From the NCBI GenBank assembly GCA_030390025.1, contig CM059443.1, forward strand, positions 50,406,001-50,470,000: 64,000 nucleotides of DNA. Reading direction: 5' to 3'. Each line of letters begins with the position of its first letter. Within the stretch, counting starts at the first letter, position 1. Below are positions 6,161-59,100 of the stretch, in pieces. The notes below the pieces were generated by a model, which had not been told where the DNA came from, did no database searches, and was given only the letters and a program-made list of their open reading frames with translations. The position numbers and the translations under genes were made by a program. Source of the stretch: Squalus acanthias (lineage: Eukaryota).

Positions 6161-7401
6161 TGAGGTCATTGGCCTCAAAAAACCACAACCATCTTCCTTT
6201 GTGCCTTAAAATCCACTCCTTTGATTAAACTTTTGGTCACCCCTTCTATTATCTCCTTCTTTAGCTCAGACTCCAATTTTTCCTAACACCTCTCTATGGG
6301 GACATGTTGGGAACAGTTCAGTTTTTCCACCAGTTCCTCTTTGTCATCTTTTGTCTTGGGAAGTTTGAACCAGAGGAACAAATGAAAAAGAGGAAGTCCC
6401 CTGAATGTGATAAATATATATCTAACTCGAGGTTTATTAGTTGCAGTTCTTCCACCCAAAGAAAAGGTCCCACCAGCCTAGAAATATCTGAGAACTGTTA
6501 CTGCAGATCACACAGTATAAATGCATCAAATTATTAACCAGCAGGAAAACTCAAAGACTGAATCCATTCGTATATCCGGCTGAATCTCACACCCACTTCG
6601 ACACCAATAAGCTGTAAATAGCCAAGCCTTTTACACTTGCATCATTGCCCATCATCAGTTTGAATTTCACAATCATCGCACACTTCCTGCCACTTTGTAT
6701 GGAGGAGGTTTTAGTACTGAGTTCATTAGGATTCATTTCACTTCAGTACTTGTATGTGTGGTGTTCATATTGTAAATAACACCCATTGTTCCAGAATTAG
6801 GTGCTGAAGTCAAGGGCTGGACAATGAGCCAAATGCCAGGGTTATGAGGGTAAATTCACTGACTCTATCCCCTCCCCGCACCCCGCCAGCAGTGAGCTCT
6901 GCTTGAAGGAGACACAATCTATCAGAGGGCCACAGTGCTAACCCCTGACCCCTGTTTGAGCATGGCTGCCCACAAGGAGTGTGGGATTGGTGAATCTAGC
7001 GTGAAAGTCCTTTTATCTTACTGAGCCATGCATTAAACATTTCCAACATTAAAATATAAACTTCTAATTTCAATGTAGTTACACTGTTTTATGCTTTGCA
7101 AAATACTGTTCAGAGATCGGCTGGGGGCAGACAATTTGTACCAAACTTTCCCTTACACAATCATGAATTTCCACCTCAGCGTCCTCATAAATTGGGTTCC
7201 GCGTCCCCCTCCGCCCCCTCTCCACAGCCCATTGCCCCCTCTCCACAGCCCATTCCACCCACTCCCCCACCCCACTCCCTCCTCCCACTTCCTCCTGAGT
7301 CTGATTGCAGTTGAGAGCAGTTCATTCATTCAATTGGTTTGGCATAAAATTCCTGCTGGACAGATAACACAGCTCGTCGTTTAGTTATAATTTTTAAAGT
7401 G

Positions 7402-7407
7402 TTTATT
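7402..7407 (-). promoter_or_regulatory. Candidate polyadenylation signal of gene A
   Basis: AATAAA on the minus strand ~1.7 kb past the stop. Conserved in B at 26640-26645 and deleted in C. Confidence 0.45.
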
Positions 7408-7529
7408 GAATGACTTTCAATTGCACAAGTTCCATTTTGTGTCTCACACAGCAGCGATGCGTTATTCTATCTAAACAGAGTCCAAGGGGGTGAAATTGCT
7501 CATCGCCAGTAGCGTGAAATTCATTCCGA

Positions 7530-7725
7530 ATCGATATTGGCCAGGACACCGGGGAGAACTCCCCTGCTCTTCTTCGAAATAGTGCCACGTGATCTTTTAC
7601 ATCACCTGAGAGAGCAGACGGGTCTCAGTTTAACGTCTCATCCGAAAGACGTCACCTCTGACAGTGCAGCACTCCCTCAGTACTGTACCGGAGTGTCAGC
7701 CTAGATGATGTGCTCAGGTCTCTGG
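7530..7725 (-). mobile_element. Deu-domain SINE fragment (SacSINE1-like)
   Basis: Reverse complement matches the core of 19381-19850. Confidence 0.7.
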
Positions 7726-9080: not shown

Positions 9081-9526
9081 TCAGGTTTCCTCCATTTTAG
9101 CATAAATAGGATTTTCTTCCATTTTTAACGGGCCAGGTCGTGGATCATCTTCCTCCAGCTGGGACTGTGTCACCGCGTCTACCGGGCAGCCTATCAAAGA
9201 ATAAATCTGCTCATTGGACAAAGCAACGGGATCCTCCTTACTGTCCTCTTTGGGCTGTGATTGGCCGTCTGGTTTGAGTTCAGCAGCTGAAGAGGTTTCA
9301 ACCTGCCGTCCATGGTCCGTGTGGTCTCTGCCTAGATATTAAGAGAGGAGATCACGTTTGATGGGTTCACTTCCAGTGGGGGACAGATAATGAAAGTGGA
9401 CTGTCTCGTTACTTGAGATAAAGGTCCAGGAGCTTTAGAACAGACACAGTGTTGACTGAGAGGATTATACTGAAAGATTGCAACGACTTACATTTTACTC
9501 CCTGGATTTCAGTTTTGTCTCCATCA
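9081..9526 (-). CDS. Gene A last two cytoplasmic exons (35 and 251 nt), ending QIYSLI...EENPIYAKMEET*
   Basis: 9526-9492 (ttcttag|...AAAT|gtaagt) and 9331-9081 (tatctag|...TGA) continue the frame. They are absent from the ORF track. Confidence 0.82.
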
Positions 9527-12500
9527 CTAAGAAAACAGAAAATTAAAACATGTGAATAATGAGTAACATAAGATTCAAACAATATCAAACCATTGTAAGT
9601 GGAGACTAGATTAGCTCACTTTCTCCCCAGAGCCTGGATTTCAGTCCAGCCCAGACTGAAATTCTCTCATTCATTTTCTCTCTCTCTGTCTCTCTCTCTC
9701 TCTGTCTCTCCGACTCTCGTTCTNNNNNNNNNNNNNNNNNNNNNNNNNNNNNNNNNNNNNNNNNNNNNNNNNNNNNNNNNNNNNNNNNNNNNNNNNNNNN
9801 NNNNNNNNNNNNNNNNNNNNNNNNNNNNNNNNNNNNNNNNNNNNNNNNNNNNNNNNNNNNNNNNNNNNNNNNNNCGTCTCTGTCTCCGTCTGTGTCTCTC
9901 ACTGTCTCTGTCTCTCTCTCTGTCTCTCTCTCTCTCTGTCTCTCTCTCTTTGTGTCTCTGTCTCTCTGTCATTGTCTCTCTGTCCCTATCTCTTTCTCTC
10001 TTGCTTTGTCTCTCTCTCTCTCTTTCTATCTTTGCTATGTGAGCAGTCCTCTCTACAATGAGTTTTCCCAGTCCCAATCCAATTCCTTGCCTAAAACTGC
10101 CCATCATTCAGTAAAATATTTGGACGAAATTGATCATTATCGTCAAATACGCCAAAATATTGTCCTGACAAAGTGTAAAAGAAAATAACTTCACACGGGC
10201 ACAGTGAAAGGAGCTATTCTGATATTGGGATAAAGGAGCACTATCAGGTCAGAGGGCAGAGTGATTTACACGGCCTCCAGCCATTCTATACCTGACTTAG
10301 AACTGTTCGGTTGTGAGATTGGCTGCACAGCCTGGAAATGTTTTGTGCTGGGTGGTGGAATAGATTAGTACGGCCCTTTCATATTTTAGGATCTGTTCTC
10401 AAATCAAGTCCAGAATATTGGGAATAAAAGTCTCTCTCTGTGCCTCTATTACTGTCTGTCTGTCCCTGTCTCTTTGTCTTTCTCTGTCTCTTTCTCTCGA
10501 AGGGTCCTTGATGAAATAAGTTTAGTCATCTCGTTCCAGTTTGTAGCTCGTGTGAGCCACAGTACAAAACTACCGCTAAATTGGCACTTTCACTCAAACA
10601 GGCCATGAGTTGTGAGAAGTGAAATGTCCGAGCTCCCTCCTGAGTTTGGAGTTGAGGAGCATTGTTGGGACAGTCCAGAGGGAGCTTTACGCTGCACCTA
10701 ATCTGGAGTGCTCCAAATGATACTGTGTGGCCACAGTGGAAAAGTAATCCATTTGCAGAGTGGGCTCCCCTCACCTTCATTACATTAACAATCTCCGAAC
10801 CCTCCATCGCAAAACAAACCCGTGGTCAGTGTTGAACGTTGCTGGGGCCGACAGCTGTCACTCTGCTTACCCTTTGACCATTGACTCTTCGATCAAACAG
10901 TACACATGCTCTGTAGAGTCAGACTTTGGGCCAGTGCTCTCCATTCCTTCACCAGGCCTTGGCTGGCTCGATGGCGTTGGAACTCTCGTCACCGAGTACG
11001 CAACATGCTCGTTGTCATCGCTCTGATCCCTTCTGGGAACCACAGAGTACGGGAAACCTAGACAGAAGGACGAGTAGACGATGTGTGCTTTTAGTTTCAA
11101 CTCTCAAAGGGACAGGCTTGGAAGAGCTGGGCAGTAATTCTAGTCACTTACATTCAGCCACCTGTGTCAGCTGCACATCACCGGCCCTACAGTTCGTAAA
11201 GAAAAGCAACCTGTAAATGTCCCATTAAATGAGGAAAACTATACAGAAAGTCTGCCTGAAAACTGAACAAATCCCATCCCTACCTGGGTCCTGGTGCTGA
11301 GGATCCTTCACAACACATGCCATAAGATTGGAAAGATAAATTTAAAAGTCTTTGTAAGGAGTCTGCACTTACAATTTTCTAGATTTAGAGCAAACATTTT
11401 AAAGCTCTTGCTTACCTTTGGCAGCTTGTCGTTTCCTTTGGATTATGCAAAGTGCCCCAACAATGCAAAGTACCCCAACAATGCAAATGATCACAACCGC
11501 ACACGCTATGGCTACTTTCACAGGTGTGGCAGTGTCTGGGCCTGCAGAGGAGAAGCAACATTAAGTTCAGTCTGTGCAATCCCGTGTTATATGTACAGCT
11601 GATCACACTGGTTACCTGGGCTGAGGAACAGACATTTCCGGTTAGAATCTGGAAAAGTGCAATGGCGAAGAAAGGAAATCGAACCAACTTTTAATGGGTA
11701 CAAACTGGACAACTGATCTGGAATCTATCAACTTTAATTTTTTTTATTCATTCATGGGACGTGGACGTCATTGACAAGGCCAACATTTATTGCCCATCCC
11801 TAATTGCCCTTGAGAAGGTGGTGGTGAGCTGCCTTCTTGAATCGCTGCAGTCCATGTGGTGAAGTTACTCCCACAGTGCTGTTAGGGAAGGAGTCCCAGG
11901 ATTTTGAGCCAGCGACGATGAAGGATCGGCGATGTACTTCTAAGTCAGGATGGTGTGTGACTTGGAGGGCAACTTGGAGATGATGGTGTTCCCATGAGCC
12001 TGCTGCCCTGTCCTTCTAGGTGGTAGAGGTCACGGGTTTGGGAGGTGCTGCCGAAGAAGCTTTGGCGAGTTGCTGCAGTGCATCTTGTAGCTGGTACACA
12101 CTGCAGCCAAGGTACGCCAGTGGTGGAGGGAGTGAATGTTTAAGATGTGGATGGGGTGCCAATCAAGCGGGCTGCTTTGTCCTGGATGGTGTCGAGTGTC
12201 TTCAGTGTTGTTGGAACTGCACTCATCGAGGCAAGTGGAGAGTATTCCATCACACTCCTTACTTGTGCCTTGTAGATGGTGGAAAGGCTTTGGTGAGTAA
12301 GGAGGTGAGACACTCGCTGCAGAATACCTAGCCTCTGACCTACTCTTGTTGCCACAGTATTTATGTGGCTGTTCCAGTTACGTTTCTGGTCAATAGTGAC
12401 CCCCAGGATGTTGATGGTGGGGGATTCGGCAATGGTAATGCCATTGAATGTTAAGGGGAGGTGGTTACACTCTCTCTTGTTGGAGATGGTCATTGCCTGG

Positions 12501-15500
12501 CACTTATGTGGCGCGAATGTTACTTGCCACTTATCAGCCCAAGCCTGAATGTTGTTCAGGTCTTGCTGCATGCAGACACGGACTGCTTCATTATCTGAGG
12601 AGTTGCGAATGGAACTGAATACTATGCAGTCATCAGCAAACATCCCCACTTCTGTCCTTATGATGGAGGGAAGGTCATTGATGAAGCAGCTGAAGATAGT
12701 TGGGCCTAGGACACTGCCCTGAGGAACTTTTGCAGCAATGTCCTGGGGCTGAGATGATTGGCCTCCAACAACCAGAACCACCTTCCTTTGTGATAGGTAT
12801 GACTCCAGCCAGTGGAGAGTTTACCCCCTGATTCCATTGCCTTCAATTTTACTAAGGTTCCTTGATGCCACACTCGGTCAAATGCTGCCTTAATGTCAAG
12901 GGCAGTCACTCTCACCTCCCCTCTGGAATTCAGCTTTTGTCCATGTTTGGACCAAGGTTGTAATGAGGTCTGGAGCCAAGTGGTTCTAGCAGAACCCAAA
13001 CTGAGCATCAGTGAGCAGGTTATTGGTGAGTAAGTGCCACTTAATAGTACTGTCGACAATACCTTCCATCACTTTGCTGATGATTGAGAGTAGACTGATG
13101 GCGCGGGAATTGACCGTTTTGGATTTATACTACTTTTTGAAGACCGGACATACCTGGGCAATTTTCCACTTTGTCGGGTAGATGCCAGTGTTGTAGCTGT
13201 ACTGGAACAGCTTGGCTAGAGGCACGGCTAGTTCTGCAGCACAAGCCTTCAGCACGACAGCCGGGATGTTGTCGGGGCTCATAGCCTTTGCTGTATCCAG
13301 TGCGCTCAACCGTTTCTTGATAGCACGTGGAGTGAATCAAATTGGCTGAAGACAGGCTTCTGTGATGGTGGGGACCTCAGGAGGAGGCCGAGATGAATCA
13401 TCCACTCGCCACTACTGGCTGAAGGTGGTTGCAAACACTTCAGCCTTGTCTTTTGCACTCACGTGCTGGGCTCTGACATCATTGAAATGGGGCTGTGCAT
13501 GGAGCCTCCTCCCGTTAGTTGTTTAATGGTCCACCACCATTCACGATGTGGCAGGACTGCAGAGCTTTGATCTCATCCATTGGTTGTGGGATCGCTTTAC
13601 TCTGTCTATAGCATGCTGCTTCTGCTGTTTAGCATGCATGTATTGTAGCTTCACCAGGTTGGCACCTCATTTTTTGGTACGTCTGCTGCTGTTCCTGGCA
13701 TGCTCTTCTACACTGCTCATTGAACCGGGGTTGGTCCCCTGGCTTGATGTTAATGGTAGAGTGAGGGATATGTCGGCCCATGAGGTTACAGATTGTGATG
13801 GAGTGCAATTCTGCTGCCGCTGATGGTCCACAGCACCGCATGGATGTCCAGTTTTGAGCAGCTAGATCTGTTCTGAATCTATCCCATTTAGCACGGTGGT
13901 AGTGCCACACAACACGATGGAGGGTGTCCTCAGGATGAAGACGGGTCCTCATCTCCACAAGGACTGTGCGGTGGTCACTCTTACCAATACTGTCATGGAG
14001 AGATGCATCTGCGACAGGTAGACTGGTGAGGACGAGGTCAAGTATGTTTCTCCCTCGTATTGGTTCTTTCACCACCCGCCGCTGGCAGCTATGTCCTTCA
14101 GGGCTTGGCCAGCTCCGTCAGTAGCGGTGCTACCGAGCCACTCGGTGATGGATATTGAAGTCGCCCACCCAGAGTACATTCTGTGCCCTTGCTACCCTCA
14201 GTGCTTCTTCCAAGTGGTGTTCAACGTGGAGGAGTACTGATTCATCAGCTGAGGGAGGGCGGAAGGTGGTAATCAGCAGGAGGTTTCCTTGCCCATGTTT
14301 GATCTGATGCCATGAGACCTCTTGGGGTCAGGGAGTCAATGTTGAGGACTCCAAGGGCCACTCCCTCCAACTGTATACCACTGTGCTGCCACCTCTGGTG
14401 GGTCTGTCTTGCCTGAGGGACAGGCCATACTTAGGGATGGTGATGGAGGAGCCTGGGACATTTCGTGAAAGAATTATTTATATTATTTATATTGAATTAT
14501 TTATATTAAATGAGTCGCATTGTTTCTAGATTGTATCACTTACTTTGAGTATTTGTACGAGTTAAGCTGCTGGTCACTGAGGAGAATCCAGATGTTGAGG
14601 TGGGGGTGTCTGAAGATTTACCACTGCTCATTACACTGGTTACCTGGGCTGAGGAACATACTTTTCTGGTTAGACTCTGGAATAGTGCAATGGCGAAGGA
14701 AGTAAATGAAAGCAACTTATAACGGCTAAAAACTGTACAACTGATCTGGAATGTCTCAGTTTGAATTATTGATATTAAATGATTCACATCATATTCTAGA
14801 TTGTATCGCTTACTTTGAGTATTTGTACGAGTTAAGCTGCTGGTCACTGAGGAGATTCCAGATGTTGAGGTGGGGGTGTCTGAAGTCTCTGCACTCGCCT
14901 CTGTCACAGTAAGGGAGATGTTTGCTGCAATCTTCCAGACAGGTTTCCCTGAATCCTGACCGTGGACAGCACAGAGATACTTCCCAGTGTCCACCACATC
15001 CGCTGAGTGAATAGTAAGGTTGTGAGACTGGGGTCTAGCAGTAGGATTGTCTGAGCTTTGGGCAGAGATTCTTTGTGACGACCTTCTATCCACACAGCAG
15101 CGTGTGTTAATTTTTGCCTCCTTTTCCTCAATGTGAACAGAGTGCAGACACTTGGAAACGTTTCCAGATCTGATCCAAAACAGAGTGAAGGGGAGCTTTT
15201 TTGTATTCTCAAACTGGCAGGGTAAAGTCACATTCACTCCCTCTGAGGAGATTTCTTCAGTAGAAAATATTTCATCTGAATGTATAAACAACATTTACAA
15301 GAACATTTATTAATATAATAATCTTCATTGCGGTAGTTTGTCAAACGATTTCCTAAAGTCCATGTACAGTATATTCCCTGCATTCCTCCATTTACCATAT
15401 CTGTTACCTTCTCGACGGTTTTTCAACCTCAATCATCCTCTTTGAAATCCGTGCCAGCTACTTATCACTATTTTCTCTTTATCTATATACATGGTTATTT

Positions 15501-18500
15501 CATCTTAATAAAGACCCTAAAGTTTTCCCAATGACAGTTATCTGCCCTAAAACCTCCTCTAATATCTCCCCAACACCTCCCAATATCTCCTCTAACATCT
15601 CACCTTATATCTCCCCTAAAGTCCCGGCAATAACTTCCCCGATACCACCCCATACTTCCCCTGATATCTCCTCCGATACTTCCCCGATCCCTCCCCCGAT
15701 ATTGCCCCAGTACACGTACCACTCTGGATTATCACAAAGAACAAGTCGTGGTTTTCACATCCCTCTCCTGACAGTGTGAGCCAGGACGGACAGTTCGATG
15801 ATCCTCCGTCTGTGGAATCCTGAGCCGAGCAGGTAAATACCATCGAGTTAAACGTCTCCACATCGAATGTCAGAGACTGAGACTCCATTTGTTCTTCATT
15901 TAATTTGCATTTACTAGACTTTGGTTTGCTGGGCCTTTTTCTCAACTTAGGACTGATGTTTTCACCAAATTTCCTTTCCTTCTTACATTTTATTTTGTCC
16001 ATTTCTGCTCCGAGATCAGTGGAGCTGCACAAGGTTACTTCATCCCCAGCACCAGTGGGCACGTTGCACTGCAGAGTGGTGACATCTCCTGGTCCTCGGG
16101 AGAAGAGATAAGTGGATCCTGCAGGGAAAGGGCAGAATCGGATAGAGATAAATAACATCCAACACAGGAAAGATCATTAAACACTCAATGTGACACAAGC
16201 CTCTCACAGTAAACGAAGGAATCATACTCTTGGTAATAGGCCAGTTTATTGTTCCTTTCATAGACTTCTTTGCCACAGTCTATAAATTAGCATCCCTCTC
16301 CATTCTCAGCCTTCTACACTGTTCCAACAAAGCTCAACGTAAGCTCGAGGAACAGCACCTCATAGAAGCATAGAAGATAGGAGCAGGAGTAGGCCATTCG
16401 GCCCCTCGAGCCTGCTCCGCCATTTAATGAGATCATGGCTGATCATCCAAATTCAGTACCCTGTCCCTGCTTTCTCCCCATATCCCTTGATCCCTTTAGC
16501 CTTAAGAAATATATCTATCTCCTTCTTGAATATATTTAATGAATTGGCCTCAACTGCCTTCTGTGGTAGAGAATTCCACAGGTTTACCACTCTCTGGGTG
16601 AAGAAATTCCTCCTCATCTCAGTCCTAAATGGCTTACCCCTTATCCTTAGACTGTGACCCCTGTTTCTGGACTCACCCGCCATCGGAAACATCCTTCCTG
16701 CATCTAGTCTGTCTAGTCCTGTTAGAATTTTATAAGTTTCAATGAGATCCCTTCTCATTCTTCTAAACTCTAGCGAATATAAGCCTAATCGACCCAATCT
16801 CTCTTCATACGTCATTCCTGCCATCCCAGGTATCAGTCTGGTAAATCTTCGCTGCACTCCCTCCATGGCAAGAACATCCTTCCTCAGATAAGGCGACCAA
16901 AACTGCACACAATACACAATACTCATCTTTCAATTAGGCACTTTACAGCCTTCTGGACTCAACATCGAGTTCAACAATTTCAGACCATAACCTCTGCCCC
17001 TATTTTTTCAGACAGCAGCTGTTGATGATTCTGCCATCCCCATTTGCAACATTTAACCACTCCTGCCTTCCACCCTATCACAGACCGTCCCTTTTCTTCT
17101 TTCCTCCCCGCCCCTCTTTCCCTGCCCCTGCACCTGGTTAAAATCTGTTACATCTCTAACTTTTTCCAGTTGTGACGAAGGATCACAGACCTGAAACGTT
17201 GACTCTGTTTCTCTCTCCACGGATGCTGCCTGACCTGCTGAGTGTTTCCAGCATTTTCTGTTTCTGTGCTGTAAATTAGCATATCCACTTGATGTTACCA
17301 ATTATTTTTTGTCTAATTACTTCTTCCAAATTGTTTCATTAACGCTTGTTGACAATGTCTATGTTTTCGGCCTTGTCGAAATGACCAACAATATCCTGTG
17401 TGATTACAATCACAGTGCGTTATCCTTCCTCAACCTCCTCAGCATCTCCAAGGCCCTTGACACAGTCAACCTCCGCAAATGCCTCTCCAATGGCCCACCT
17501 TTGTGGCACTGCCCGCAAATACATCCAGTCCTATCTGTCGCAGTGTAGCCAGCACATCCTCAGGAATCGCTCTTCTCCCGTGTCCAATGGTCGCCCCTCG
17601 TCCACCCAAGGCTCCATCCTTGCCCTATCCTATATTCCACCCATACGTGATGTCTCTCAGGAACGTTGTCAAGGAGTCAGCTTCTAAACGTAGCCAAGTC
17701 GATACCTCACTTCACCTCTCCATCAATGCCCTCAGTGCTGGACTGTCCGATTTCTTATCTGGCATCGGGTTCGGGAAAAACCAGGACTCTCCTCAGCTCA
17801 AAGTTGGGAAAGGCTAAGCCATCCCGTTCAGCTCCAGTACACACTGACCCTATTTGACCCTGAGCTGAACCTCAAACCCATATCCAGCCCACCACCAGAT
17901 GTCGTGACTTCCCCTCCCAAAGATTGCCTACCTCCATTCCTACCTCACCCTCAGTGCTGCTGGAACTCTCCTCCACAGCTTCATCTCCTCGACCACTGAC
18001 ATCTCCAATCCTTTCCTCATCGACCTCCTGAGCTTCACCGATAACAGACTCCAACTCAGCCGGAACCCATCACCCACATCCTGTCCCACACAGCATCCTA
18101 ATCACCAATCACTCCTGTCCTCACTGACCTCCCCCAGGCATTGAATTCAAAACTCCCCATTACACTCCTAGGGCAATGTCCTAGGCCCACCTATCTTCAG
18201 CTGCTTCATCAATGCCCTTCCCTCTATCATAAGGACAGAAGTGGGGATGTTCCCTGATGATTGCAGAGTGTTCAGCTCTATTCACAATTCCTCAGATAAT
18301 GAAGCAGTCCGTGCCTGCATGCAGCAACACCTGGACAAACATAGAAACATAGAAAAATCGGAGCAGGAGTAGGCCATTTGGCCCTTCGAGCCTGCTCCGC
18401 CATTCAATATGATCATGGCTGATCCTCTATCTCAATACCATATGCCCGCTCTCTCTCCATATCCCTTGATGCCTTTTGTGTCTAGAAATCTATCTATCTC

Positions 18501-21500: not shown

Positions 21501-23477
21501 TCCGCTGGGACATCTCCAGAATCCAGGGAATTTTGGTAAATTTTCACCAATGCATCCACTATCTCTGCAGCCACTTCTTCTAAGACTCTAGGATGCAGGC
21601 CATCAGGTCCAGGGGACTTGTCAGCCTTTAGTCCCATTAGTTTGCCTAGTACTTTTTCTCTAGTGATAGTAATTGTTTTAAGCTCCTCCCTCCCTATAGC
21701 CTGTTCATTATCAATTATTATTGGGCAACTTGAGCATCTGACAGGCACAATTCCCCCTGTAATGGCCCTCACAGACTTCACCCAGAAACTCTCCACTCAC
21801 TGACACAGATGTGTCAGTACTGCAGATCACTATTCCAATAGAGCTCGAATAAACACTGAATCACATCTCCCAGTCAGACTCGATTGTAACTCAGACATCA
21901 GCCGTGTTGGACTGAGGATAGGAGCAGACGTCACTTATCATTTCAGGAACTCAGTCTGTCTGCAGACTGCACCCACCACACACAGTCTGTTTAGAAAAAC
22001 CAGCAGCCAAATTACACAGAGACTGGTTACAAACCCCCCATTACACAGTCTGGATAGAGACCCCCCCATTACACAGTCTGGATAGAGACCCCCCCCATTA
22101 CACAGTCTGGATAGAGACCCCCCCCCATTACAGTCTGGATAGAGACCCCCCCCATTACAGTCTGGATAGAGACCCCCCCCATTACAGTCTGGATAGAGAC
22201 CCCCCCCATTACAGTCTGGATAGAGACCCCCCCCATTACACAGTCTGGATAGAGACCCCCCCCATTACAGTCTGGATAGAGACCCCCCCCATTACACAGT
22301 CTGGATAGAGACCCCTACCGCCCCCTCCAATCACAGTGTCAGTTCCCATTTCTTTACAGAAGAATCGTGAAATGGGTGGGTCTGTAATGTACAGAAGGAC
22401 CTGAGCTGCTCCATTTTGCCAGAGTTGCTGAATTCCAGCCCTGGTCCGTGTGGTGTTGTGGATCCTGCCCAGTGTGGTTTGCACCCTTTACACTTCTCCG
22501 CAGTATTTATTGGTGTGAGGCTCGGCTGAGTCATCAACCATAATTGTTACTTTAGAGTTCACAGTGATCGAGTCTGAGCACAAAATCTTACACAGAATTA
22601 CATAGAATGTACGGCACAGAAACAGGCCATTCGGCCCAACTGCTCCATGCCGGTGTTAATGCTGCACAGGAGCCTCATCCCACCCCTCTTCATCAAACCC
22701 TGTCAGCAAATCCTTCTCACGCTTCTGAATCTTCCACCATTTAATTCTTAAAGTGAGATATGATTCTGCAGTAAGCGAACTTGGGATAGGATCAGCGCTG
22801 TTCTCGTACTTCATCTCTGCGCTGTTTTAAAACAGGTGTTGAACCAAAGATGTTTGCAGCACTGAGGAAACCGTTCGGCCCATCGTGCCAGTGCTGGCTC
22901 TTTGCCAGAGCAAACCCATTGCCCCCCACTCTCCCCACAGCCCTGTATCTTCCTCTGCTTCAAATGTTTTTCCAGTTTTACTTCAAAAGATGTAAAGGTC
23001 TCTGCCTCAACCACCCCGTGTGATAAATTTTTGGGAACGAAGGGAATTAAGGGATATGGGGATAGTGCAGGAAGGTGGAGTTGAGGTAGAAGATGAGCCA
23101 AGATTTTGTTGAATGGCGGAGCAGGCTTGAAGTGCCAAATGGCCTGCTCCAGCTCCTATTTCTTATGTAAAACAACCCTCTGTGTGAAGAATTTTTTCCT
23201 AACCTGTCTCCTCACTCTCAGTGGCACTTTTGAACTGACGCCCCATGATTAAACCATGTTAAAATGGCCCAGCGAGGACTGTGATGCAAGCTCATTAAAC
23301 GTCCACACGAAAACAGCACTGATATCTTTCAATCCTTATATTTCTCCATTGGGATATAGATAGAAACTGATATTTCCAGATAAGAAATATGTTGCAGGTT
23401 AACGTAAAATATTAATCCTTACCTGTAGCATGTTGGAACAGAAGGAAAAGACCCACAAACAAAGCACCGAGCGCCAT
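9081..23477 (-). CDS. Gene A: type I transmembrane Ig-superfamily receptor (SP, atypical Ig domain, V-type Ig domain, S/T stalk, TM, Tyr-motif tail), ~545 aa, probably inhibitory
   Basis: Hand-spliced GT-AG exons with consistent phases: 23477-23423, 16118-15720, 15275-14814, 14676-14644, 11648-11616, 11541-11416, 11305-11284, 11186-11152, 11057-10871, 9526-9492, 9331-9081. They sum to 1638 nt (545 aa + TGA) with no internal stop. All exons and splice sites are conserved in paralogue B. An N-gap (9724-9874) lies in one intron. Confidence 0.85.
9665..10030. repeat. (CT/GT)n compound microsatellite containing assembly gap 9724-9874
   Basis: Visible directly. Confidence 0.95.
10871..11305 (-). 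CDS. Gene A cytoplasmic exons (22, 35 and 187 nt) with FPYSVV, VAYSVT and HVYCLI motifs
   Basis: Exons 11305-11284, 11186-11152 and 11057-10871 join in frame (phases 1-2, 2-1, 1-2). The 22-nt exon has a weaker AAG acceptor. Confidence 0.8.
11416..11541 (-). CDS. Gene A transmembrane exon GPDTATPVKVAIACAVVIICIVGVLCIVGALCIIQRKRQAAK
   Basis: 25 hydrophobic residues followed by a basic stop-transfer (QRKR). Acceptor ctcctctgcag|, donor AAAG|gtaagc. Confidence 0.9.
11740..14460 (-). mobile_element. CR1-clade family 2 LINE in the stalk intron of gene A
   Basis: RT ORF 12140-12781 (VPQGSVLGP/FADD) and EN-region ORF 13629-14075. The same insertion is in B and C, so it predates the gene duplications. 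Confidence 0.9.
14814..15275 (-). CDS. Gene A exon: V-type Ig domain D2 plus S/T-rich stalk
   Basis: VTLPC...LFWI...NLTI...DTGKYLC...ISLTV is a canonical V-set pattern. Acceptor cattcag|AT, donor CAAA|gtaagc, 462 nt, phase 1-1. Confidence 0.92.
15720..16118 (-). CDS. Gene A exon: atypical Cys-rich Ig-like domain D1
   Basis: Acceptor ccctgcag|GATCC, donor AGTG|gtacgt, 399 nt, phase 1-1. TTLQC and VFTC look like the B/F-strand Cys. 7 Cys; no C-strand Trp. Confidence 0.8.
16276..17270 (+). mobile_element. Penelope-like element remnant (GIY-YIG C-terminus plus pLTR) split by a CR1
   Basis: Peptide RKLEEQHL|IFQLGTLQPSGLNIEFNNFRP* joins across the insertion. Degenerate hammerhead core GTGACGA...TGAAAC at 17171-17200. 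Confidence 0.75.
16364..16921 (-). mobile_element. 5'-truncated CR1 family 1
   Basis: ORF 16453-16926 (YCVQFWSP...WNSLP); flanked by a CTCAT duplication (16359-16363 / 16922-16926). Confidence 0.9.
17360..18140 (+). mobile_element. Old, highly decayed L2-type LINE fragment
   Basis: Residual RT-like peptide LVEMTNNIL...ISKALDTVN resembling L2 'LxKVxNDIL...LSAAFDTVDH'. Confidence 0.5.
18165..19160 (+). mobile_element. CR1 family 2 fragment with a nested antisense CR1 family 1 (~18339-18995)
   Basis: Family-2 sequence stops and resumes at a repeated GGACAA. The inner ORFs 18432-19066 encode a CR1 C-terminus. Confidence 0.85.
19381..19850 (+). mobile_element. Near full-length tRNA-derived Deu-domain SINE (SacSINE1-like)
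   Basis: A-box-like GTGGTTCAGTGGG, B-box-like GAGTTCAAGAC, Deu-like core GTGCTGAGGGAGTGCCGCACTGTCGGAGGTGCC, L2-like tail ending TCTTTCTTT. Confidence 0.8.
20035..21720 (-). mobile_element. CR1 family 1-related LINE, frameshifted RT
   Basis: ORFs 20193-21796 with RT motifs; CATAAGAA tail at 20035. Confidence 0.9.
22034..22311. repeat. Minisatellite, 10 x 27-29 bp: C(6-9)ATTAC(AC)AGTCTGGATAGAGA
   Basis: Counted directly. Confidence 0.95.
23423..23477 (-). CDS. Gene A signal-peptide exon MALGALFVGLFLLFQHAT(G)
   Basis: ATG, 18 mostly hydrophobic codons, then a phase-1 donor ACAG|gtaagg. An upstream acceptor ttctctcacag| at 23533 implies a further 5' non-coding exon. Confidence 0.85.
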
Positions 23478-49410: not shown

Positions 49411-51039
49411 TTGTGCCTTAAAATCCACTCCTTTGATCAAACTTTTGGTCACCCCTTCTCTTATCTCCTTCTTTAGCTCAGACTCCAATTTTTCCGAACA
49501 CCTCTCTATGGGGACATGTTGGGAACAGTTCAGTTTTTCCACCAGTTCCTCTTTGTCATCTTTTGTCTTGGGAAGTTTGAACCAGAGGAACAAATGAAAA
49601 AGAGGAAGTCCCCTGAATGTGATAAATATATATCTAACTCGAGGTTTATTAGTTGCAGTTCTTCCACCCAAAGAAAAGGTCCCACCAGCCTAGAAATATC
49701 TGAGAACTGTTACTGCAGATCACACAGTATAAATGCGTCAAATTATTAACCAGCAGGAAAACTCAAAGACTGAATCCATTTGTATATCCGGCTGAATCTC
49801 ACACCCACTTCGACACCAATAAGCTGTAAATAGCCAAGCCTTTTACACTTGCATCATTGTGAAATTCGAACTGATGATGGGCAATCATCGCACACTTCCT
49901 GCCACTTTGTATGGAGGAGGCTTTAGTACTGAGTTCATTAGGATTCATTTCACTTCAGTACTTGTATGTGTGGTGTTCATATTGTAAATAACACCCATTG
50001 TTCCAGAATTAGGTGCTGAAGTCAAGGGCTGGACAATGAGCCAAATGCCAGGGTTATGAGGGTAAATTCACTGACTCTATCCCCTCCCCGCACCCCGCCA
50101 GCAGTGAGCTCTGCTTGAACGAGACACAATTTATCAGAGGGCCACAGTGCTAACCCCTGACCCCTGTTTGAGCATGGCTGCCCACAAGGAGTGTGGGATT
50201 GGTGAATCTAGTGTGAAAGTCCTTTTATCTTACTGAGCCATGCATTAAACATTTCCAACATTAAAATATAAACTTCTAATTTCAATGTAGTTACACTGTT
50301 TTATGCTTTGCAAAATACTATTCAGAGATCGGCTGGGGGCAGACAATTTGTACCAAACTTTCCCTTACACAATCGTGAATTTCCAGCTCAGCGTCCTCAT
50401 AAATTGGGTTCTGCGTCCCCCTCCGCCCCCTCTCCACAGCCCATTGCCCCCTCTCCACAGCCCATTCCCCCCACTCCCCCCACCCCACTCCCTCCTCCCA
50501 CTTCCTCCTGAGTCTGATTGCAGTGTCCTCACTGAGAGCAGTTCATTCATTCAATTGGTTTGGCATAAAATTCCTGCTGGACAGATAACAAAGCAATGGA
50601 TCCTCCTTACTGTCCTCTTTGGGCTGTGATTGGCCGCCTGGTTTGAGTTCAGTAACTGAAGAGGTTTCAACCTGCCGTCCATGGTCCGTGTGGTCTCTGC
50701 CTAGATATTAAGAGAGGAGATCACGTTTGATGGGTTCACTTCCAGTGGGGGACAGATATTGAAAGTGGACTGTCTCGTTACTTGAGATAAAAGTCCAGGA
50801 GCTTTAGAACAGACACAGTGTTGACTGAGAGGATTATACTGAAAGATTGCAACGACTTACATTTTACTCCCTGGATTTCAGTTTTGTCTCCATCACTAAG
50901 AAAACAGAAAATTAAAACATGTGAATAATGAGTAACATAAGATTCAAACAATATTAAATCATTGTAAGTGGAGACTAGATTAGGTCATTTTCTCCCCAGG
51001 GCCTGGATTTGAGTCCAGCCCAGACTGAAATTCTCACAT

Positions 51040-51450
51040 TCATTTTCTCTCTCTGTCTCTCTCTCTCTCTGACTGTCTCTCATTGTCTCTCGGACACTCG
51101 TTCTCCCTGTCTCTTTCTCTTTCTATGTCTCTCTCTCTCTCTCTTTGTCTGTCTCTCTCTGTCTCTCTCTCTGTCTGTCTCTCTCTCTCTGTCTCGCGAT
51201 CTGTCTCTCTGTCTCGCGANNNNNNNNNNNNNNNNNNNNNNNNNNNNNNNNNNNNNNNNNNNNNNNNNNNNNNNNNNNNNNNNNNNNNNNNNNNNNNNNN
51301 NNNNNNNNNNNNNNNNNNNNNNNNNNNNNNNNNNNNNNNNNNNNNNNNNNNNNNNNNNNNNNNNNNNNNNNNNNNNNNNNNNNNNNNNNNNNNNNNNNNN
51401 NCCTATCTCTTTCTCTCTTGCTTTGTCTCTCTCTCTCTTTCTATCTTTGC
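51040..51450. repeat. (CT/GT)n microsatellite containing assembly gap 51220-51401
   Basis: Visible directly. Confidence 0.95.
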
Positions 51451-53154
51451 TATGTGAGCAGTCCTCTCTACAATGAGTTTTCACAGTCCCAATCCAATTC
51501 CTTGCCTAAAACTGCCCATCATTCAGTAAAATATTTGGACGAAATTGATCATTATCGTCAAATACGCCAAAATATTGTCCTGACAAAGTGTAAAAGAAAA
51601 TAACTTCACACGGGCACAGTGAAAGGAGCTATTCTGATGTTGGGATAAAGGAGCACTATCAGGTCAGAGGGCAGAGTGATTTACACGGCCTCCAGCCATT
51701 CTATACCTGACTTAGAAATGTTCGGTTGTGAGATTGGCTGCACAACCTGGAAATGTTTTGTGCTGGGTGGTGGAATAGATTAGTACGGCCCTTTCATATT
51801 TTAGGATCTGTTCTCAAATCAAGTCCAGAATATTGGGAATAAAAGTCTCTCTCTGTGCCTCTATTACTGTCTGTCTGTCCCTGTCTCTTCGTCTTTCTCT
51901 GTCTCTTTCTCTCGAAGGGTCCTTGATGAAATAAGTTTAGTCATCTCGTTCCAGTTTGTAGCTCGTGTGAGCCACAGTACAAAACTACCGCGAAATTGGC
52001 ACTTTCACTCAAACAGGCCATGAGGTGTGAGAAGTGAAATGTCCGAGCTCCCTCCTGAGTTTGAAGTTGAGGAGCATTGTTGGGACAGTCCAGAGGGAGC
52101 TTTACGCTGCACCTAATCTGGAGTGCTCCAAATGATACAGTGTGGCCACAGTGGAAAAGTAATCCATTTGCAGAGTGGGCTCCCCTCACCTTCATTACAT
52201 TAACAATCTCCGAACCCTCCATCCCAAAACCCGTGGCCAGTGTTGAACGTTGCCGGGGCCGACAGCTGTCACTCTGCTTACCCTTTGACCATTGACTCTT
52301 CGATCAAACAGTACACATGCTCTGTAGAGTCAGACTTTGGGCCAGTGCTCTCCATTCCTTCACCAGGCCTTGGCTGGCTCGATGGCGTTGGAACTCTCGT
52401 CACCGAGTACGCAACATGCTCGTTGTCATCACTCTGATCCCTTCTGGGAACCACAGAGTACGGGAAACCTAGACAGAAGGACGAGCAGACGATGTGTGCT
52501 TTTAGTTTCAACTCTCAAAGGGACAGGCTCGGAAGAGCTGGGCAGTAATTCTAGTCACTTACATTCAGCCACCTGTGTCAGCTGCACATCACCAGCCCTA
52601 CAGTTAGTAAAGAAAAGCAACCTGTAAATGTCCCATTAAATGAGGAAAACTATACAGAAAGTCTGCCCGAAAACTGAACGAATCCCATCCCTACCTGGGT
52701 CCTGGTGCTGAGGATCCTTCACAACACATGCCATAAGATTGGAAAGATAAATTTAAAAGTCTTTGTAAGGAGTCTGCACTTACAATTTTCTAGATTTAGA
52801 GCAAACATTTTAAAGCTCTTGCTTACCTTTGGCAGCTTGTCGTTTCCTTCGGATTATGCAAAGTGCCCCAACAATGCAAAGTACCCCAACAATGCAAATG
52901 ATCACAACCGCAAACGCTATGGCTACTTTCACAGGTGTGGCAGTGTCTGGACCTGCAGAGGAGAAGCAACATTAAGTTCAGTCTGTGCAATCCCGTGTTA
53001 TATGTACAGCTGATCACACTGGTTACCTGGGCTGAGGAACAGACATTTCCGGTTAGAATCTGGAATAGTGCTTTGGCGAAGAAAGGAAATCGAACCAACT
53101 TTTAATGGGTACAAACTGGACAACTGATCTGGAATCTATCAACTTTAATTTTTT

Positions 53155-55880
53155 TAATTCATTCATGGGATGTGGGCGTCATTGACAAGGCCAACATTTA
53201 TTGCCCATCCCTAATTGCCCTTGAGAAGGTGGTGGTGAGCTGCCTTCTTGAACCGCTGCAGTCCATGTGGTGAAGGTACTCCCACAGTGCTGTTAGGGAA
53301 GGAGGCCCAGGATGTTGAGCCAGCGACGATGAAGGAACGGCAATATACTTCTAAGTCAGGATGGTGTGTGACTTGGGGGGCAACTTGGAGATGATGGTGT
53401 TCCCATGAGCCTGCTGCCCTGTCCTTCTAGGTGGTAGAGGTCACGGGTTTGGGAGGTGCTGCCGAAGAAGCTTTGGCGAGTTGCAGCAGTGCATCTTGTA
53501 GCTGGTACACACTGCAGCCAAGGTACGCCAGTGGTGGAGGGAGTGAATGTTTAAGATGTGGATGGGGTGCCAATCGAGCGGGCTGCTTTGTCCTGGATGG
53601 TGTCGAGTGTCTTCAGTGTTGTTGGAACTGCACTCATCGAGGCAAGTGGAGAGTATTCCATCACACTCCTTACTTGTGCCTTGTAGATGGTGGAAAGGCT
53701 TTGGTGAGTAAGGAAGTGAGATACTCGCTGCAGAATACCCAGCCTCTGACCTACTCTTTTTGCCACAGTATTTATGTGGCTGTTCCAGTTACGGTTCTGG
53801 TCAATAGTGACCCCCAGGATGTTGATGGTGGGGGATTCGGCAATGGTAATGCCGTTGAATGTTAAGGGGAGGTGGTTAGACTCTCTCTTATTGGAGATGG
53901 TCATTGCCTGGCACTTATGTGGCGCGAATGTTACTTGCCATTTATCAGCCCAAGCCTCAATGTTGTCCAGGTCTTGCTGCACACAGACATGGACTGCTTC
54001 ATTATCTGAGGAGTTGCGAATGGAACTGAACACTGTGCAGTCATCAGCAAGCATCCCCACTTCTGTCCTTATGATGGAGGGAAGGTCATTGATGAAGCAG
54101 CTGAAGATAGTTCGGACTAGGACACTGCCCTGAGGAACTTTTGCAGCAATGTCCTGGGGCTGAGATGATTGGCCTCCAACAACCAGAACCACCTTCCTTT
54201 GTGATAGGTATGACTCCAGCCAGTGGAGAGTTTACCCCCTGATTCCATTGCCTTCAATTTTACTGAGGTTCCTTGATGCCACAATCGGTCAAATGCTACC
54301 TTGATGTCAAGGGCAGTCACTCTAACCTCCCCTCTGGAATTCAGCTTTTGTCCATGTTTGGACCAAGGTTGTAATGAGGTCTGGAGCTAAGTGGTCCTCG
54401 CAGAACCCAAACTGAGCATCAGTGAGCAGGTTATTGGTGAGCAATTGCCACTTAATAGTACTGTCGACAATACCTTCCATCACTTTGCTGATGATTGAGA
54501 GTAGACTGATGGGTCGGGAATTCACCGTTTTGGATTTATACTACTTTTTGAAGACCGGACATACCTGGGCAATTTTCCACTTTGTCGGGTAGATGCCAGT
54601 GTTGTAGCTGTACTGGAACAGCTTGGCTAGAGGCACGGCTAGTTCTGGAGCACAAGCCTTCAGCACGACAGCCGGGATGTTGTCGGGGCTCATAGCCTTT
54701 GCTGTATCCAGTGCGCTCAACCGTTTCTTGATATCACGTGGAGTGAATCAAATTGGCTGAAGACTGGCTTCTGTGATAGTGGGGACTGCAGGAGGAGGCC
54801 GAGATGAATCATCCACTCACCACTTCTGGCTGAAGATGGTTGCAAACACTTCAGCCTTGTCTTTTGCACTCATGTGCTGGGCTCTGACATCATTGAGGAT
54901 GGGGATGTGCATGGAGCCTCCTCCCGTTAGTTGTTTAATGGTCCACCACCATTCACGATGTGGCAGGACTGCAGAGCTTTGATCTCATCCATTGGTTGTG
55001 GGATCGCTTTACTCTGTCTATAGCATGCTCCTTCTGCTGTTTAGCATGCATGTATTGTAGCTTCACCAGGTTGGCACCTCATTTTTAGGTACGTCTGCTG
55101 CTGTTCCTGGAATGCTCTTCTACACTGCTCATTGAACCGGGGTTGGTCCCCTGGCTTGATGTTAATGGTAGAGTGAGGGATATGTTGGCCCATGAAGTTA
55201 CAGATTGTGATGGAGTACAATTCTGCTGCTGCTGATGGTCCACAGTACCTCATGGATGTCCAGTTTTGAGCTGCTAGATCTGTTCTGAATCTATCCCATT
55301 TAGTACGGTGGTAGTGCCACACAACACGATGGAAGGTGTCCTCAGGATGAAGACGGGTCCTTGTCTCCACAAGGACTGTGCGGTGGTCACTCTTACCAAT
55401 ACTGTCATGGAGAGATGCATCTGCGACAGGTAGATTGGTGAGGACGAGGTCAAGTATGTTTCTCCCTCGTGTTGGTTCTTTCACCACCCGCCGCTGGCAG
55501 CTATGTCCTTCAGGACTCGACCAGCTCGGTCAGTAGCGGTGCTACCGAGTCACTCTTGGTGATGGACATTGAAGTCCCTCACCCAGAGTACATTCTGTGC
55601 CCTTGCTACCCTCAGTGCTTCTTCCAAGTGGTGTTCAACGTGGAGGAGTACTGATTCATCAGCTGAGGGAGGCCGGTAGGTGGAAATCAGCAAGAGGTTT
55701 CCTTGCCCATGTTTGACCTGATGCCATGAGACCTCTTGGGGTCAGGGAGTCAATGTTGAGGACTCCAAGGGCCACTCCCTTCCGACTATATACCACTGTG
55801 CTGCCACCTCTGGTGGGTCTGTCTTGCCTGAGGGACAGGACATACTTAGGGATGGTGATGGAGGAGCCAGGGACATTTTG
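53155..55880 (-). mobile_element. CR1-clade family 2 LINE in the stalk intron of copy C
   Basis: Paralogue of 11740-14460, sharing a small internal deletion with A (14100 / 55490) that B lacks. Confidence 0.9.
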
Positions 55881-56149
55881 TGAAAGAATTATTTATATTA
55901 TTTACATTGAATTATTTATATTAAATGAGTCGCATTGTTTCTAGATTGTATCACTTACTTTGAGTATTTGTACGAGTTCAGCTGCTGGTCACTGAGGAGA
56001 TTCCAGATGTTGAGGTGGGGGTGTCTGAAGTCTCTGCACTCGCCTCTGTCACAGTCAGGGAGATGTTTGCTGCAATCTTCCAGACAGGTTTCCCTGAATC
56101 CTGACTGTGGACAGCACAGAGATACCTCCCAGTGTCCACCACATCCGCT

Positions 56150-59100
56150 AATGAATCAGTACTTTGCCATGTTGAACACCAGTCTGGGCCTGCGACAGGT
56201 GGTGAGAGAACCAACACGAGGGAAAAACTTACTTGACCTCGTCCTCACCAATCTACCTGTCGCAGATGCATCTGTCCATGACAGTATTGGTAGCAGTGAT
56301 CACCACACAGTCATTGTGGAGACGAAGTCCCATCTTCACACTGAGGACACCCTCCATCGTATTGTGTGGCGCTAACACCGTGCTAAATGGGATAGATTCA
56401 GAACAGATCTAGCAACTCAAAACTGGACATCCATGAGGCGCTGTGGGGCAGCAGCAGAATTGTATTCGACCACAATCTGTAACCTCATGGCCCGGCATAT
56501 CCCTCACTGTACCATTACCACCAAGCCAGGGGACCAACCCTGGTTCAAAAAGGAATGTAGAAGAGCATGCCAGGAGCAGCATCAGGCATACCTAAAAATG
56601 AGGTGCCAACCTGGGGAAGCAGCAACACAGGACTACATACATGTTAAAAAACGGAAGCAGCATGCTATAGACAGGGCTAAGTGATCCCACAATCAACGGA
56701 TCAGATCAAAGCTCTGCAGTCCTGCCACATCCAGTCATGAATGGTGGTGGACAATTAAACAATTAACTGGAGGAGGAGGCTCCATGAATATCCCCATCCT
56801 CAATGATGGTGGAGCCCAGCACGTGAGTGCAAAAGACAAGGCTGAAGCGTTTGCAGCCATCTTCAGCCAGAAGTGCCGAGTGGATGATCCACATCAGCCT
56901 ACTCCTGAGGTCCCCACCATCACAGAAGTCAGTCTTCAGCCAATTCGATTCACTCCACGTGATATCAAGAAACGGTTGAGCGCAGTGGATACAGCAAAGG
57001 CTATGGGCCCTGACAACATCCCGGCTATCATGCTGAAGACTTGTCTTCCAGAACTAGCCGCGCCTCTAGCCAAGCTGGTCCAATACAGGTACAACACTGG
57101 CATCTATCCGACAATGTGGTAAACTGCCCAGGTATGTCCTGTCCACAAAAAGCAGGAGAAATCCAATCTTGCCAATTACCGCCCCATCAGTCTACTCTCA
57201 ATCATGAGCAAAGTGATGGAAGATGTCATCGACAGTGCTATCAAGCGGCACTTACTCACCTATAACCTGCTCACTGATGCCCAGTTTGGGTTCCACCAAG
57301 ACCACTCTGCTCCCGACCTCATTACAGCCTTGGTCCAAACATGGACAAAAGAGCTGAATTCCAGAGGTGAGGTGAGAATGCCTGCCCTTGACATCAAGGC
57401 AGCATTTGACCGAGCGTGGCATGAAGTAAATGGGAATCAGGGTGAAAACTCTCCACTGGCTGGAGTCATACCTAGCACAAAGGAAGATGGTTGTGGTGAT
57501 TGAAGGTCAATCATCACAGTCCCAGGACATCGCTGCAGGAGTTCCTCAGGGCAGTGTCCTAGGCCCAACCATAAGAACGTAAGAAATAGGAGCAGTAGTA
57601 GGCCATTCGGCCCTTCGAGCCTGCTCCGCCATTCAATGAGATCATGGCTGATCTTCTGCCTCAACTCCATTCACTGGCCCTATCGCCATATCCCTTGATG
57701 CCCTTACTAGTCAGAAATCTATTGACTTCTGTTTTGAATATACCCAATGACTGAGCCTCCACAGCCCTCTAGGGTAGTGAATTCCAAAGATTCACCACCC
57801 TCTGTGTGAAGAAATTTCTTCTCATCTCAGTCCTGAATGGCCTACCCTTTATCTTGTGGCTGTGGCCACTGGTTCTAGACTCCCCAAGGGAAACATTCTC
57901 CCAGCATCCATCCTATCAAGCCCTGTAATAATTTTGTATGCTTCAATGAGATCCCCTCTCATTCTTCTGAATTCAAGAGAAACAGGCCTAGTTTACTCAA
58001 TCTCTTCTCATATGACAGTCTCGCCATCCCAGGAATCAATCTCGTGAACCTTCGTTGCGCTCCCTCTATGGCAAGTATATCCTTCCTTAGGTAAAGAGAC
58101 CAAAATTGTACACAGTACTCCAGGTGTGGTCTCACCAAGACCCTATATAATTGGAGTAAGACTTCTTTACTGGAGTGGAGCTGTGGTCATTGTTTGGTGT
58201 GATTGCCGTGATTATCTCTCTGCCGAGGTGTGATAAAGGGCAGTTAGAAAGATTAACTGTAATCATCTGGCAGTGTTCTCTGACTATATATGCTGTGCCG
58301 AAATACATCTCTTCACTTCACCTGACGAAGGGGCAGCAGCTCCGAAAGCTTGTGATTTCAAATAAAACTGTTGGACTATAACCTGGTGTTGTGCGACTTC
58401 TCACATTTGTCCACCCCAGTCCAACACTGGCATCTCCACATCATTGTTTGGTGTGGAATTGAGGGAAGCAGAACGTAATGAGAAGATGTTAAACATTGCT
58501 CAACAGTAATTTCTATGCTGGTGGTACCTTTCTGCGGGACAACTGCAACTAATTAACCTCGAGTTAGATTTCTATTTATCACATTCAGAATTTCCTCTTT
58601 TTCAATTGTTTCTCTGACTCATGCTTCCTAAAAAAAGAGGAACGGTACAAAAACTGAACTGTTCCCAACATCTTATCAGTAATCTAAACATCAATTTGTC
58701 TAAAATGCAGAATTATCTGAACCTGCTTTTCAAACTTGCGTGTGTATATATCCCTCCCCCATGACAGTCAGTGTAATGTTGAGGGACCACTCCGAGCTGC
58801 TACAAGCTGAATGAGGGATTGGGGGTGTTGCCTGTGACGGGCTTAAGGAAATACCACAGCAACTTAATATAATGCCTTTAACGTTGTAAAACATCCCAAG
58901 CTGCTTCACAGAGGCATAAGCAAAATGGAATCCAAGCTAAGGAAGGATATATTGGCCTTGGAGGGAGTGCAGCGTAGATTTACTAGAACGATACCTGAAC
59001 TCCAGGGGTTAAATTACGAGGAGCGATTACACCAACTAGGGTTGTAGTCCCTGGAATTTAGAAGGTTAAGGGGTGATTTGATTGAAGTTTTCAAGATATT

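Follow-up and report, generated by a model that had tools for sequence, protein, structure and literature searches.

The tail of one receptor gene of the spiny dogfish, Squalus acanthias, holds several tyrosines and near its end the motif NPIYAKM, in which a single tyrosine belongs to both an NPxY and a YxxM motif; the question is what this last tyrosine recruits. The gene, here called gene A, lies in the 64,000-nucleotide stretch that we analyzed (CM059443.1, positions 50,406,001 to 50,470,000; hereafter the window), part of a 69-Mb contig (C19) of the 3.7-Gb genome, and all window coordinates of gene A, its paralogue gene B and a truncated unit C refer to the minus strand. A sequence-only reading of the window had proposed that Dok or Shc adaptors compete with PI3K for the shared tyrosine. 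We favor a different answer, to which we give a probability of about 0.58: gene A would encode an inhibitory receptor that binds an adaptor with a phosphotyrosine-binding (PTB) domain of the IRS/Dok type at this tyrosine, Y517, and SH2-domain partners at tyrosines upstream of it.

Nine exons with AG/GT junctions give gene A an open reading frame (ORF) of 523 amino acids (table 1). This codes for a type I receptor in the order leader, cysteine-rich domain (D1), immunoglobulin V domain (IgV) with stalk, uncharged transmembrane (TM) segment, two micro-exons and three tail exons, the tail comprising 184 residues. The three tail exons had been placed correctly by the sequence-only reading: their AG/GT ends were confirmed, and joined in frame they yield FPYSVV, VAYSVT, HVYCLI, QIYSLI and EENPIYAKMEET*, the same five motifs being encoded by gene B (exons 33424-33238, 29394-29360 and 29199-28949). 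Overlooked, however, were the micro-exons of 22 and 35 nt between the TM exon and position 11057, which add 19 in-frame residues and are both included in orthologue annotations. Likewise, the residues F, H and Q at -2 of the sites that look like inhibitory motifs of the immunoreceptor tyrosine-based kind (ITIMs) are indeed noncanonical, but the Thr at +3 of VAYSVT, where the hydrophobic residue is missing, had escaped notice.

Splicing was followed in four runs from two studies, which were guessed to be RNA and are not recorded as RNA. Each run has a contig whose match to the window stops at 9330/9331, the last acceptor. One of these contigs (X3 record 16) matches 9101-9330 and 11283-11540 with 257 letters between, which equals the 35+187+35 of the three middle exons (by length arithmetic, the middle letters being unread), and a contig of X1 (record 7) joins the D1 exon to the V exon. 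Contigs of this kind, which skip introns, are the one direct sign of splicing. A tail of the gene A type is also present in public annotations of ten other shark species. Transcripts ending at MVKG*, through the TAA at the 10870 donor, had been named as the case that would undo the tail; they find no support as the sole product, because contigs are spliced to the last acceptor and the shark annotations carry the tail. Record 16 of X3, spliced elsewhere, keeps the 110-nt intron 11415-11306, so that its protein would end a few residues past the TM segment; a Chiloscyllium annotation (P0016) ends likewise just past the TM segment, and a tailless decoy form is possible.

The nearest homologues are those of Pristiophorus (tail 86% identical) and Heptranchias. 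When tails from nine shark species are aligned, 38 of 197 columns are invariant and the longest blocks are MEENPIY, TEHVYC and VAY, the latter two unchanged in all nine species. With Heterodontus and Rhincodon added, MEENPIY occurs in 11/11 species, and it ends 18 of 20 listed database rows, the exceptions being a short Pristiophorus isoform and one unnamed protein. All 11 species share a hydrophobic residue at -8 of the terminal tyrosine, Glu at -5 and Ala or Ser at +1, and eight have Lys at +2. The Met at +3 is found in only five (the window, Heterodontus, Mustelus, Carcharodon and one of two S. canicula paralogues): Pristiophorus has Ile, Heptranchias and S. torazame have Thr, and in Hemiscyllium, Stegostoma and Rhincodon the protein stops at +2. 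Judged from these alignments, the +3 Met is evidently expendable, whereas the N-terminal side of Y517 is not; the expected conservation of NPIYAKM in orthologues therefore holds for its first half and fails for its last residue. The first tail site is a canonical ITIM in some orthologues (LPYSVV, VAYAVV, VAYSLV and LPYSVI) and has lost its tyrosine in Heptranchias; it is homologous to a family-wide C-x-P-Y motif (C in 42, P in 45 and Y in 48 of 56 sequences).

Gene A is one of 17 gene units counted in the fetched stretches of two C19 clusters (48.65-48.82 and 50.38-50.53 Mb). They comprise four long units with open frames through the motif, four long units broken either by a frameshift or by an insertion within the HVYCL exon, four short-type genes (three with intact ORFs), four headless fragments and one tail remnant. 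The ectodomain of one short-type gene is 98% identical to that of gene A. In the short type an Arg stands at the N-terminal end of the TM segment and an Asp inside it, and the tail that follows would be made from the 35-nt exon in another frame and be free of tyrosine, as is annotated in Pristiophorus, Scyliorhinus and Mustelus (P0010, P0007 and P0008); a tail tyrosine is lacking in eight of nine short proteins examined, one Hemiscyllium isoform having one. Clustered genes, near-identical ectodomains and long forms versus short forms with a charged TM segment, the hallmarks of paired receptors, are thus found together. By the rule described for CD300 in PMC7247439, a charged TM segment pairs with FcRγ or DAP12; the short-tailed copies here would pair through theirs with an adaptor of the FcRγ/CD3ζ type bearing an immunoreceptor tyrosine-based activation motif (ITAM), and this genome has two zeta-zeta TM adaptor genes.

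Trees were calculated for 22 rows. In the TM tree (46 columns) all nine short TM regions, from eight species, form one clade with support 98/98, whereas in the ectodomain tree long and short forms pair within species in seven species. Ectodomains that group by species and TM regions that group by type are, as far as trees can tell, what marks paired receptors that evolve in concert, and PMC5112662 reports the same pattern for CEACAM pairs matched by gene conversion. Gene conversion or exon shuffling likely keeps the ectodomains of the short copies in step with those of the long ones, as would be expected if a pathogen exploits the inhibitory receptor. On these grounds the short-tailed copies are likely activating and gene A their inhibitory partner. 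It should be noted that blocks of up to 20 kb show 95-99% identity between the two clusters, which lie about 1.6 Mb from each other, by recent segmental duplication or as an uncollapsed haplotype, so some of the duplication could be an assembly artefact.

What docks at Y517 can be narrowed by the position of its conserved residues. PTB domains read residues N-terminal to a phosphotyrosine, and that of IRS prefers a hydrophobic residue at -6 to -8; the invariant Met at -6 and the hydrophobic -8 of the shark site fit PTB domains of the IRS/Dok type and the Dok-1 consensus (Y/M)xxNxLpY, every invariant residue lies N-terminal to the tyrosine, and three species stop at +2. IRS-type PTB proteins are encoded in this genome (21 matches). 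In the mechanism we propose, clustering by ligand would let Src-family kinases phosphorylate the tail, and the terminal site hydrophobic-x-M-E-E-N-P-I-pY-A/S would dock an IRS/Dok-type adaptor, in the manner of CD200R with Dok2 and RasGAP. SH2 partners such as SHIP or SHP-2 would join at the invariant VAY and TEHVYC sites and at YS[LV]I, and the part of the +3 Met would be at most a tuning of binding in some lineages.

Several observations weigh against this proposal. None of the five window tyrosines of the tail, read directly, fits the strict ITIM [ILVS]xYxx[ILV]. Sharks have Glu rather than Lys or Arg at -5, the full CD200R motif is missing, and the Dok-1 consensus (Y/M)xxNxLpY is one whose wording our literature search did not find. 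Because it occurs in both shark superorders, the +3 Met is probably ancestral. Among 25 hand-chosen named rows of the wider vertebrate family, [KR]xNxxY, the form conserved in CD200R, stands near the C-terminus in 10/12 ray-finned rows, which counts for the proposal, lungfish having DNILY, but in 0/12 named tetrapod rows, so the PTB site is not family-wide. On the side of the pairing, the Asp of the short-type TM segment is replaced by His in two species and by Asn in another, the long TM regions are not resolved as a clade on 46 columns, and the grouping of ectodomains by species could also have come from repeated lineage-specific duplication with exon exchange.

The residues that follow Y517 invite a second candidate for its reader, in which the receptor would still be inhibitory and paired but the terminal tyrosine would bind the SH2 domain of Csk, shutting off Src-family kinases in place of the Dok route. 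Its Ala or Ser at +1 in 11/11 species and Lys at +2 in 8/11 suit this, and YAKM, YSKM and YAKI fit the Csk SH2 consensus pY-[TAS]-[KRQN]-[MIVR]. ENPIY[AS] moreover resembles the EPIYA sites, of which phosphorylated EPIYA-A/B and the EPIYA of Pragmin bind Csk according to PMC3593179. We nevertheless regard Csk as an unlikely reader, given that three species stop at +2, that Thr stands at +3 in Heptranchias and S. torazame, that the invariance lies on the N-terminal side and that Asn at -3 is common to bony-fish members. Trafficking offers a further role, in which an unphosphorylated NPxY overlapping YxxΦ would serve endocytosis or recycling while the upstream tyrosines signal: NPxY motifs mostly mediate trafficking (PMC8007030) and the insulin receptor NPEY serves internalization without phosphorylation (PMC3355962). 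YAKM does qualify as YxxΦ, though several species have lost that motif. Endocytic NPxY typically needs an aromatic or hydrophobic residue at -5, where sharks have Glu throughout, and the acidic run before the tyrosine suits a kinase substrate; that the terminal motif is mainly a trafficking signal seems to us very improbable.

This leaves the proposal from which the question arose, namely one tyrosine as a competitive switch between Dok/Shc and PI3K with inhibitory or costimulatory output. In its favor, each of the 10 full copies of the last exon in this genome encodes NPxYxxM, which is also found in five of the 11 species, spanning both superorders, and it appeared in only 0.019% of 100,000 shuffles of the 184-residue tail (NPxY in 0.75% and YxxM in 10.5%), the pattern having been chosen after the fact. 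Published work also speaks for it: CD300f unites ITIMs with p85 sites (PMC7247439), the EPIYA-B site of CagA, of the PIYA type, also binds p85 (PMC3593179), and the p85 N-SH2 domain tolerates Ile at +3 (PMC3514216, Table 3). On the other hand, the Met is missing in 6/11 species and substituted in one S. canicula paralogue, and YxxM occurs in 2/63 non-shark relatives, a set that includes redundant turtle sequences, and never at the terminal tyrosine. Ala is not among the +1 preferences that the same table gives for p85 SH2 domains (V/D or V/M/E), and Shc, whose PTB domain wants a hydrophobic -5 (PMC3355962), is disfavored because this residue is always Glu in sharks. The MuSK site NPMpYQRM is reported to bind DOK7 and CRK (PMC8277574), and separate short-type genes would already supply activation. 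The terminal NPxY of this multi-tyrosine tail is thus strongly constrained, but its YxxM half is not supported as a conserved design, and the Dok/PI3K switch appears quite improbable. Taken alone, the overlap is nothing unusual: overlapping sites also exist in MuSK and in bird CD200R, ITIM and PI3K sites occur together in CD300f, and sharks can do without the Met.

The receptor with a PTB-type site that we favor belongs to a family that extends well beyond sharks. A profile search gave 90 proteins at E <= 0.001, 62 of them at <= 1e-10; 30 of the 90 were looked up by name and some others were named separately. The named members come from sturgeon, gar, teleosts, lungfish, frogs, newt, caecilian, turtles, crocodilians, lizards, kiwi, duck and echidna, and nearly all are labelled uncharacterised or hypothetical, except for a weak CD300H-like match (E 3e-4) and for three predictions that bear the names of other genes. 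Common to them are D1 (Cys31 in 48, Trp44 in 40 and Cys97 in 51 of 56), a V domain that carries C and CC, and C-x-P-Y as the first motif of the tail; the last letters of five tetrapod rows read TVYx[LV][LVA], and Pelobates has NTVYCVV. Word-limited searches named no ray or chimaera homologue and the named rows include no marsupial or placental, which does not establish absence. A literature search, which did not cover subscription journals, found no description of the receptor family. Tentatively, then, this may be an undescribed checkpoint family of jawed vertebrates, as old as the split of sharks and bony fishes and lost in placentals and marsupials, whose terminal tyrosine passed from a PTB site in sharks and bony fishes to one like an immunoreceptor tyrosine-based switch motif in tetrapods; in sharks it would be paired and matched across both superorders, and in this genome one promoter could splice an activating or an inhibitory receptor from a short gene and a phase-compatible headless cassette.

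The ectodomain of gene A is predicted to consist of two V-type immunoglobulin domains. Pfam gave no match for its D1, and D1 stayed unfolded when AlphaFold was given 18 shark sequences (pLDDT about 25), whereas a model of a turtle member from 56 sequences reached a mean pLDDT of 77 with seven strands in D1. In a Foldseek search with the whole turtle model (two beta domains), two-V proteins came first (JAML, scFvs, CD226 and pIgR) at TM-scores <= 0.31. Many IgV domains tie in the fold searches and none singles out a family, sequence searches of PDB returned only generic immunoglobulin matches, and in the Atlas the top cluster has no name and the other matches are mere look-alikes, JAML and CD226 among them. 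By sequence, CD226 matched part of D2 at E 2.4e-6, ranked below Robo and FcεRIα.

By analogy, gene A likely works like CD200R at its tail end and like CD300 or CEACAM as a paired cluster. CD200R has a V-C2 ectodomain, and short partners of it with a charged TM segment exist. With it the family shares a terminal PTB-type NPxY/NxxY with Ile or Leu at -1 (NPIY in 11/11 shark species) and an acidic-xx-PY element that precedes it in the tail; in fish members the site takes the form [KR]xNx[IL]Y, and PMC8007030 gives [KR]xNxxY as conserved in CD200R and reports an NxxY that overlaps an ITIM in bird CD200R. Unlike CD200R, the membrane-proximal domain of the family scores as V-set and folds as IgV, not C2; the motif EEDExxPYxxYxxKxNxxY (PMC8007030) is in 0/10 family tails tested, the PY and NxxY elements lying tens to about 150 residues apart; and CD200R ranked 46 of 50 listed in the fold search (Z 10.3). 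Clustered paired receptors with long tyrosine tails versus short tails and charged TM segments also characterize CD300 and skate MDIR, and CD300f mixes ITIM and p85 sites (PMC7247439). The definition of CD300, TREM and MDIR in PMC3031540 requires, however, a single (or modular) V domain, one in CD300, that bears YWCR and a second disulfide, whereas this family has two dissimilar domains, FWI[RT] in the C strand, and C and CC elsewhere. JAML and CD226 have two tandem V-type domains, an architecture that is predicted for the family, and ranked highest among non-antibody rows when the turtle model was searched with Foldseek, but at 10-16% identity, TM-scores of 0.22-0.26 and rmsd >10 Å. Both are costimulatory single genes and are not known to have a paired cluster or an NPxY. 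MuSK Y553 is a literal NPxYxxM whose one phosphotyrosine binds DOK7 by a PTB and CRK by an SH2 domain (PMC8277574), although MuSK is an unrelated protein, a receptor tyrosine kinase with this juxtamembrane site in muscle. Activating CEACAMs of Xenopus and mammals bear their own ITAM, whereas the short members here have a polar TM segment and mostly no tail tyrosine.

With an overlap of motifs already known from MuSK Y553, the main interest lies with the unnamed, ancient and paired family. To our knowledge, few inhibitory and activating pairs of leukocyte receptors have been defined in sharks. Here two ancient signaling types evolve in concert, which points to pathogen pressure, and the family would give access to innate regulation in the oldest lineage that possesses adaptive immunity. 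As an immunoglobulin receptor of fishes, amphibians, reptiles, birds and echidna that is unnamed in nearly all annotations, it is also a candidate for a lost mammalian checkpoint.

Table 1. Features of genes A and B and of unit C in the window
Feature	Position	Strand	Remarks
Gene A leader exon, signal peptide	23423..23477	-	Resembles orthologue N-termini
Gene A D1 exon, Cys-rich, predicted degenerate V-type Ig	15720..16118	-	Family Cys31/Trp44/Cys97; seven-strand model of turtle member
Gene A D2 exon, IgV and Ser/Thr stalk, additional Cys in IgV (C and CC)	14814..15275	-	Pfam V-set 27.6 bits against a cut-off of 26; generic IgV fold
Likely optional stalk exon, 105 nt, in frame, outside the 523-aa model	14544..14648	-	AG/GT ends; peptide found in Pristiophorus annotations; inferred
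Gene A TM exon, uncharged (long type)	11416..11541	-	
Gene A micro-exon, 22 nt	11284..11305	-	Peptide found in orthologues
Gene A micro-exon, 35 nt	11152..11186	-	Length arithmetic on contig; orthologue annotations
Gene A tail exon with Y370, Y387 and Y419	10871..11057	-	Codons: Y370 (ECFPYSVV) 11049-11047; Y387 (VAYSVT) 10998-10996; Y419 (TEHVYCLI) 10902-10900
Gene A tail micro-exon, 35 nt	9492..9526	-	Counterpart in another frame would make the tail of short-type paralogues
Gene A last coding exon, Y484 (QIYSLI, 9203-9201), terminal motif, stop	9081..9331	-	
MEENPIYAKM, predicted PTB-type site, labile +3 Met	9093..9122	-	Y517 codon 9104-9102
Gene B, intact long-tail paralogue, 524 aa	28949..43520	-	Ectodomain 84% identical to gene A
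Unit C, headless (V only in its 3' part, then long TM and tail exons), truncated ahead of NPIY	50588..56161	-	Downstream of a short-type gene outside the window

Behind all four short-type genes lies a headless cassette consisting of part of V, a long TM segment and tail exons (window 56161-50588 and C19 near 50.385, 48.746 and 48.667 Mb). Three of the four run unbroken as far as NPIY and match the phase of the V exon, the tail of unit C (52952-50588) being without the NPIY end; such cassettes could allow alternative activating or inhibitory splicing or be relics of duplication. Three long-type copies (C19 near 50.499, 48.702 and 48.646 Mb) break at the same point just past HVYCL, and two of these, when examined, held insertions of about 3.8 and 6.9 kb, by which the NPIY end is cut off unless they are spliced out. 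A juxtamembrane extracellular Cys is found in 9/9 short-type proteins and in no long type (e.g., TM exon C19 50399655-50399539) and may give disulfide-linked dimers. Among the proteins P0001, P0024, P0002 and P0040 are an unnamed protein with a shark-type tail but neither V nor NPIY, a Heptranchias short form with four domains (D1-V-D1-V) and Pristiophorus isoforms without V or TM segment.

Turtle and duck predictions link the family by name to FAM81A and CHRNA7, and in those of turtles the gene is merged with FAM81A, but no family member turned up in the 200 kb surrounding the FAM81-like locus of contig C23 (best E 0.14), and synteny with FAM81A was set aside. Tandem genes for CHRNA3 and a beta-2/4-type nicotinic receptor (L087 and L088, C19 63.906-63.934 Mb), arranged like the CHRNB4-CHRNA3 cluster, lie 13 Mb away, a hint of a shared linkage group; at this distance no synteny is claimed and orthology is not established. 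An NPIY-like reading at 26500-26410 of the window (minus strand), with related DNA at 7276-7534, has a stop about 20 codons upstream and was treated as chance. A multi-exon gene for an IRS-type PTB protein (Dok/FRS-like) stands at C19 46.51 Mb, about 2 Mb from cluster 1. Finally, the leader exon of gene A holds a short upstream ORF (23522-23477) just before the start codon (ATG, 10 more codons and TAG), of which gene B has the ATG and a longer version.

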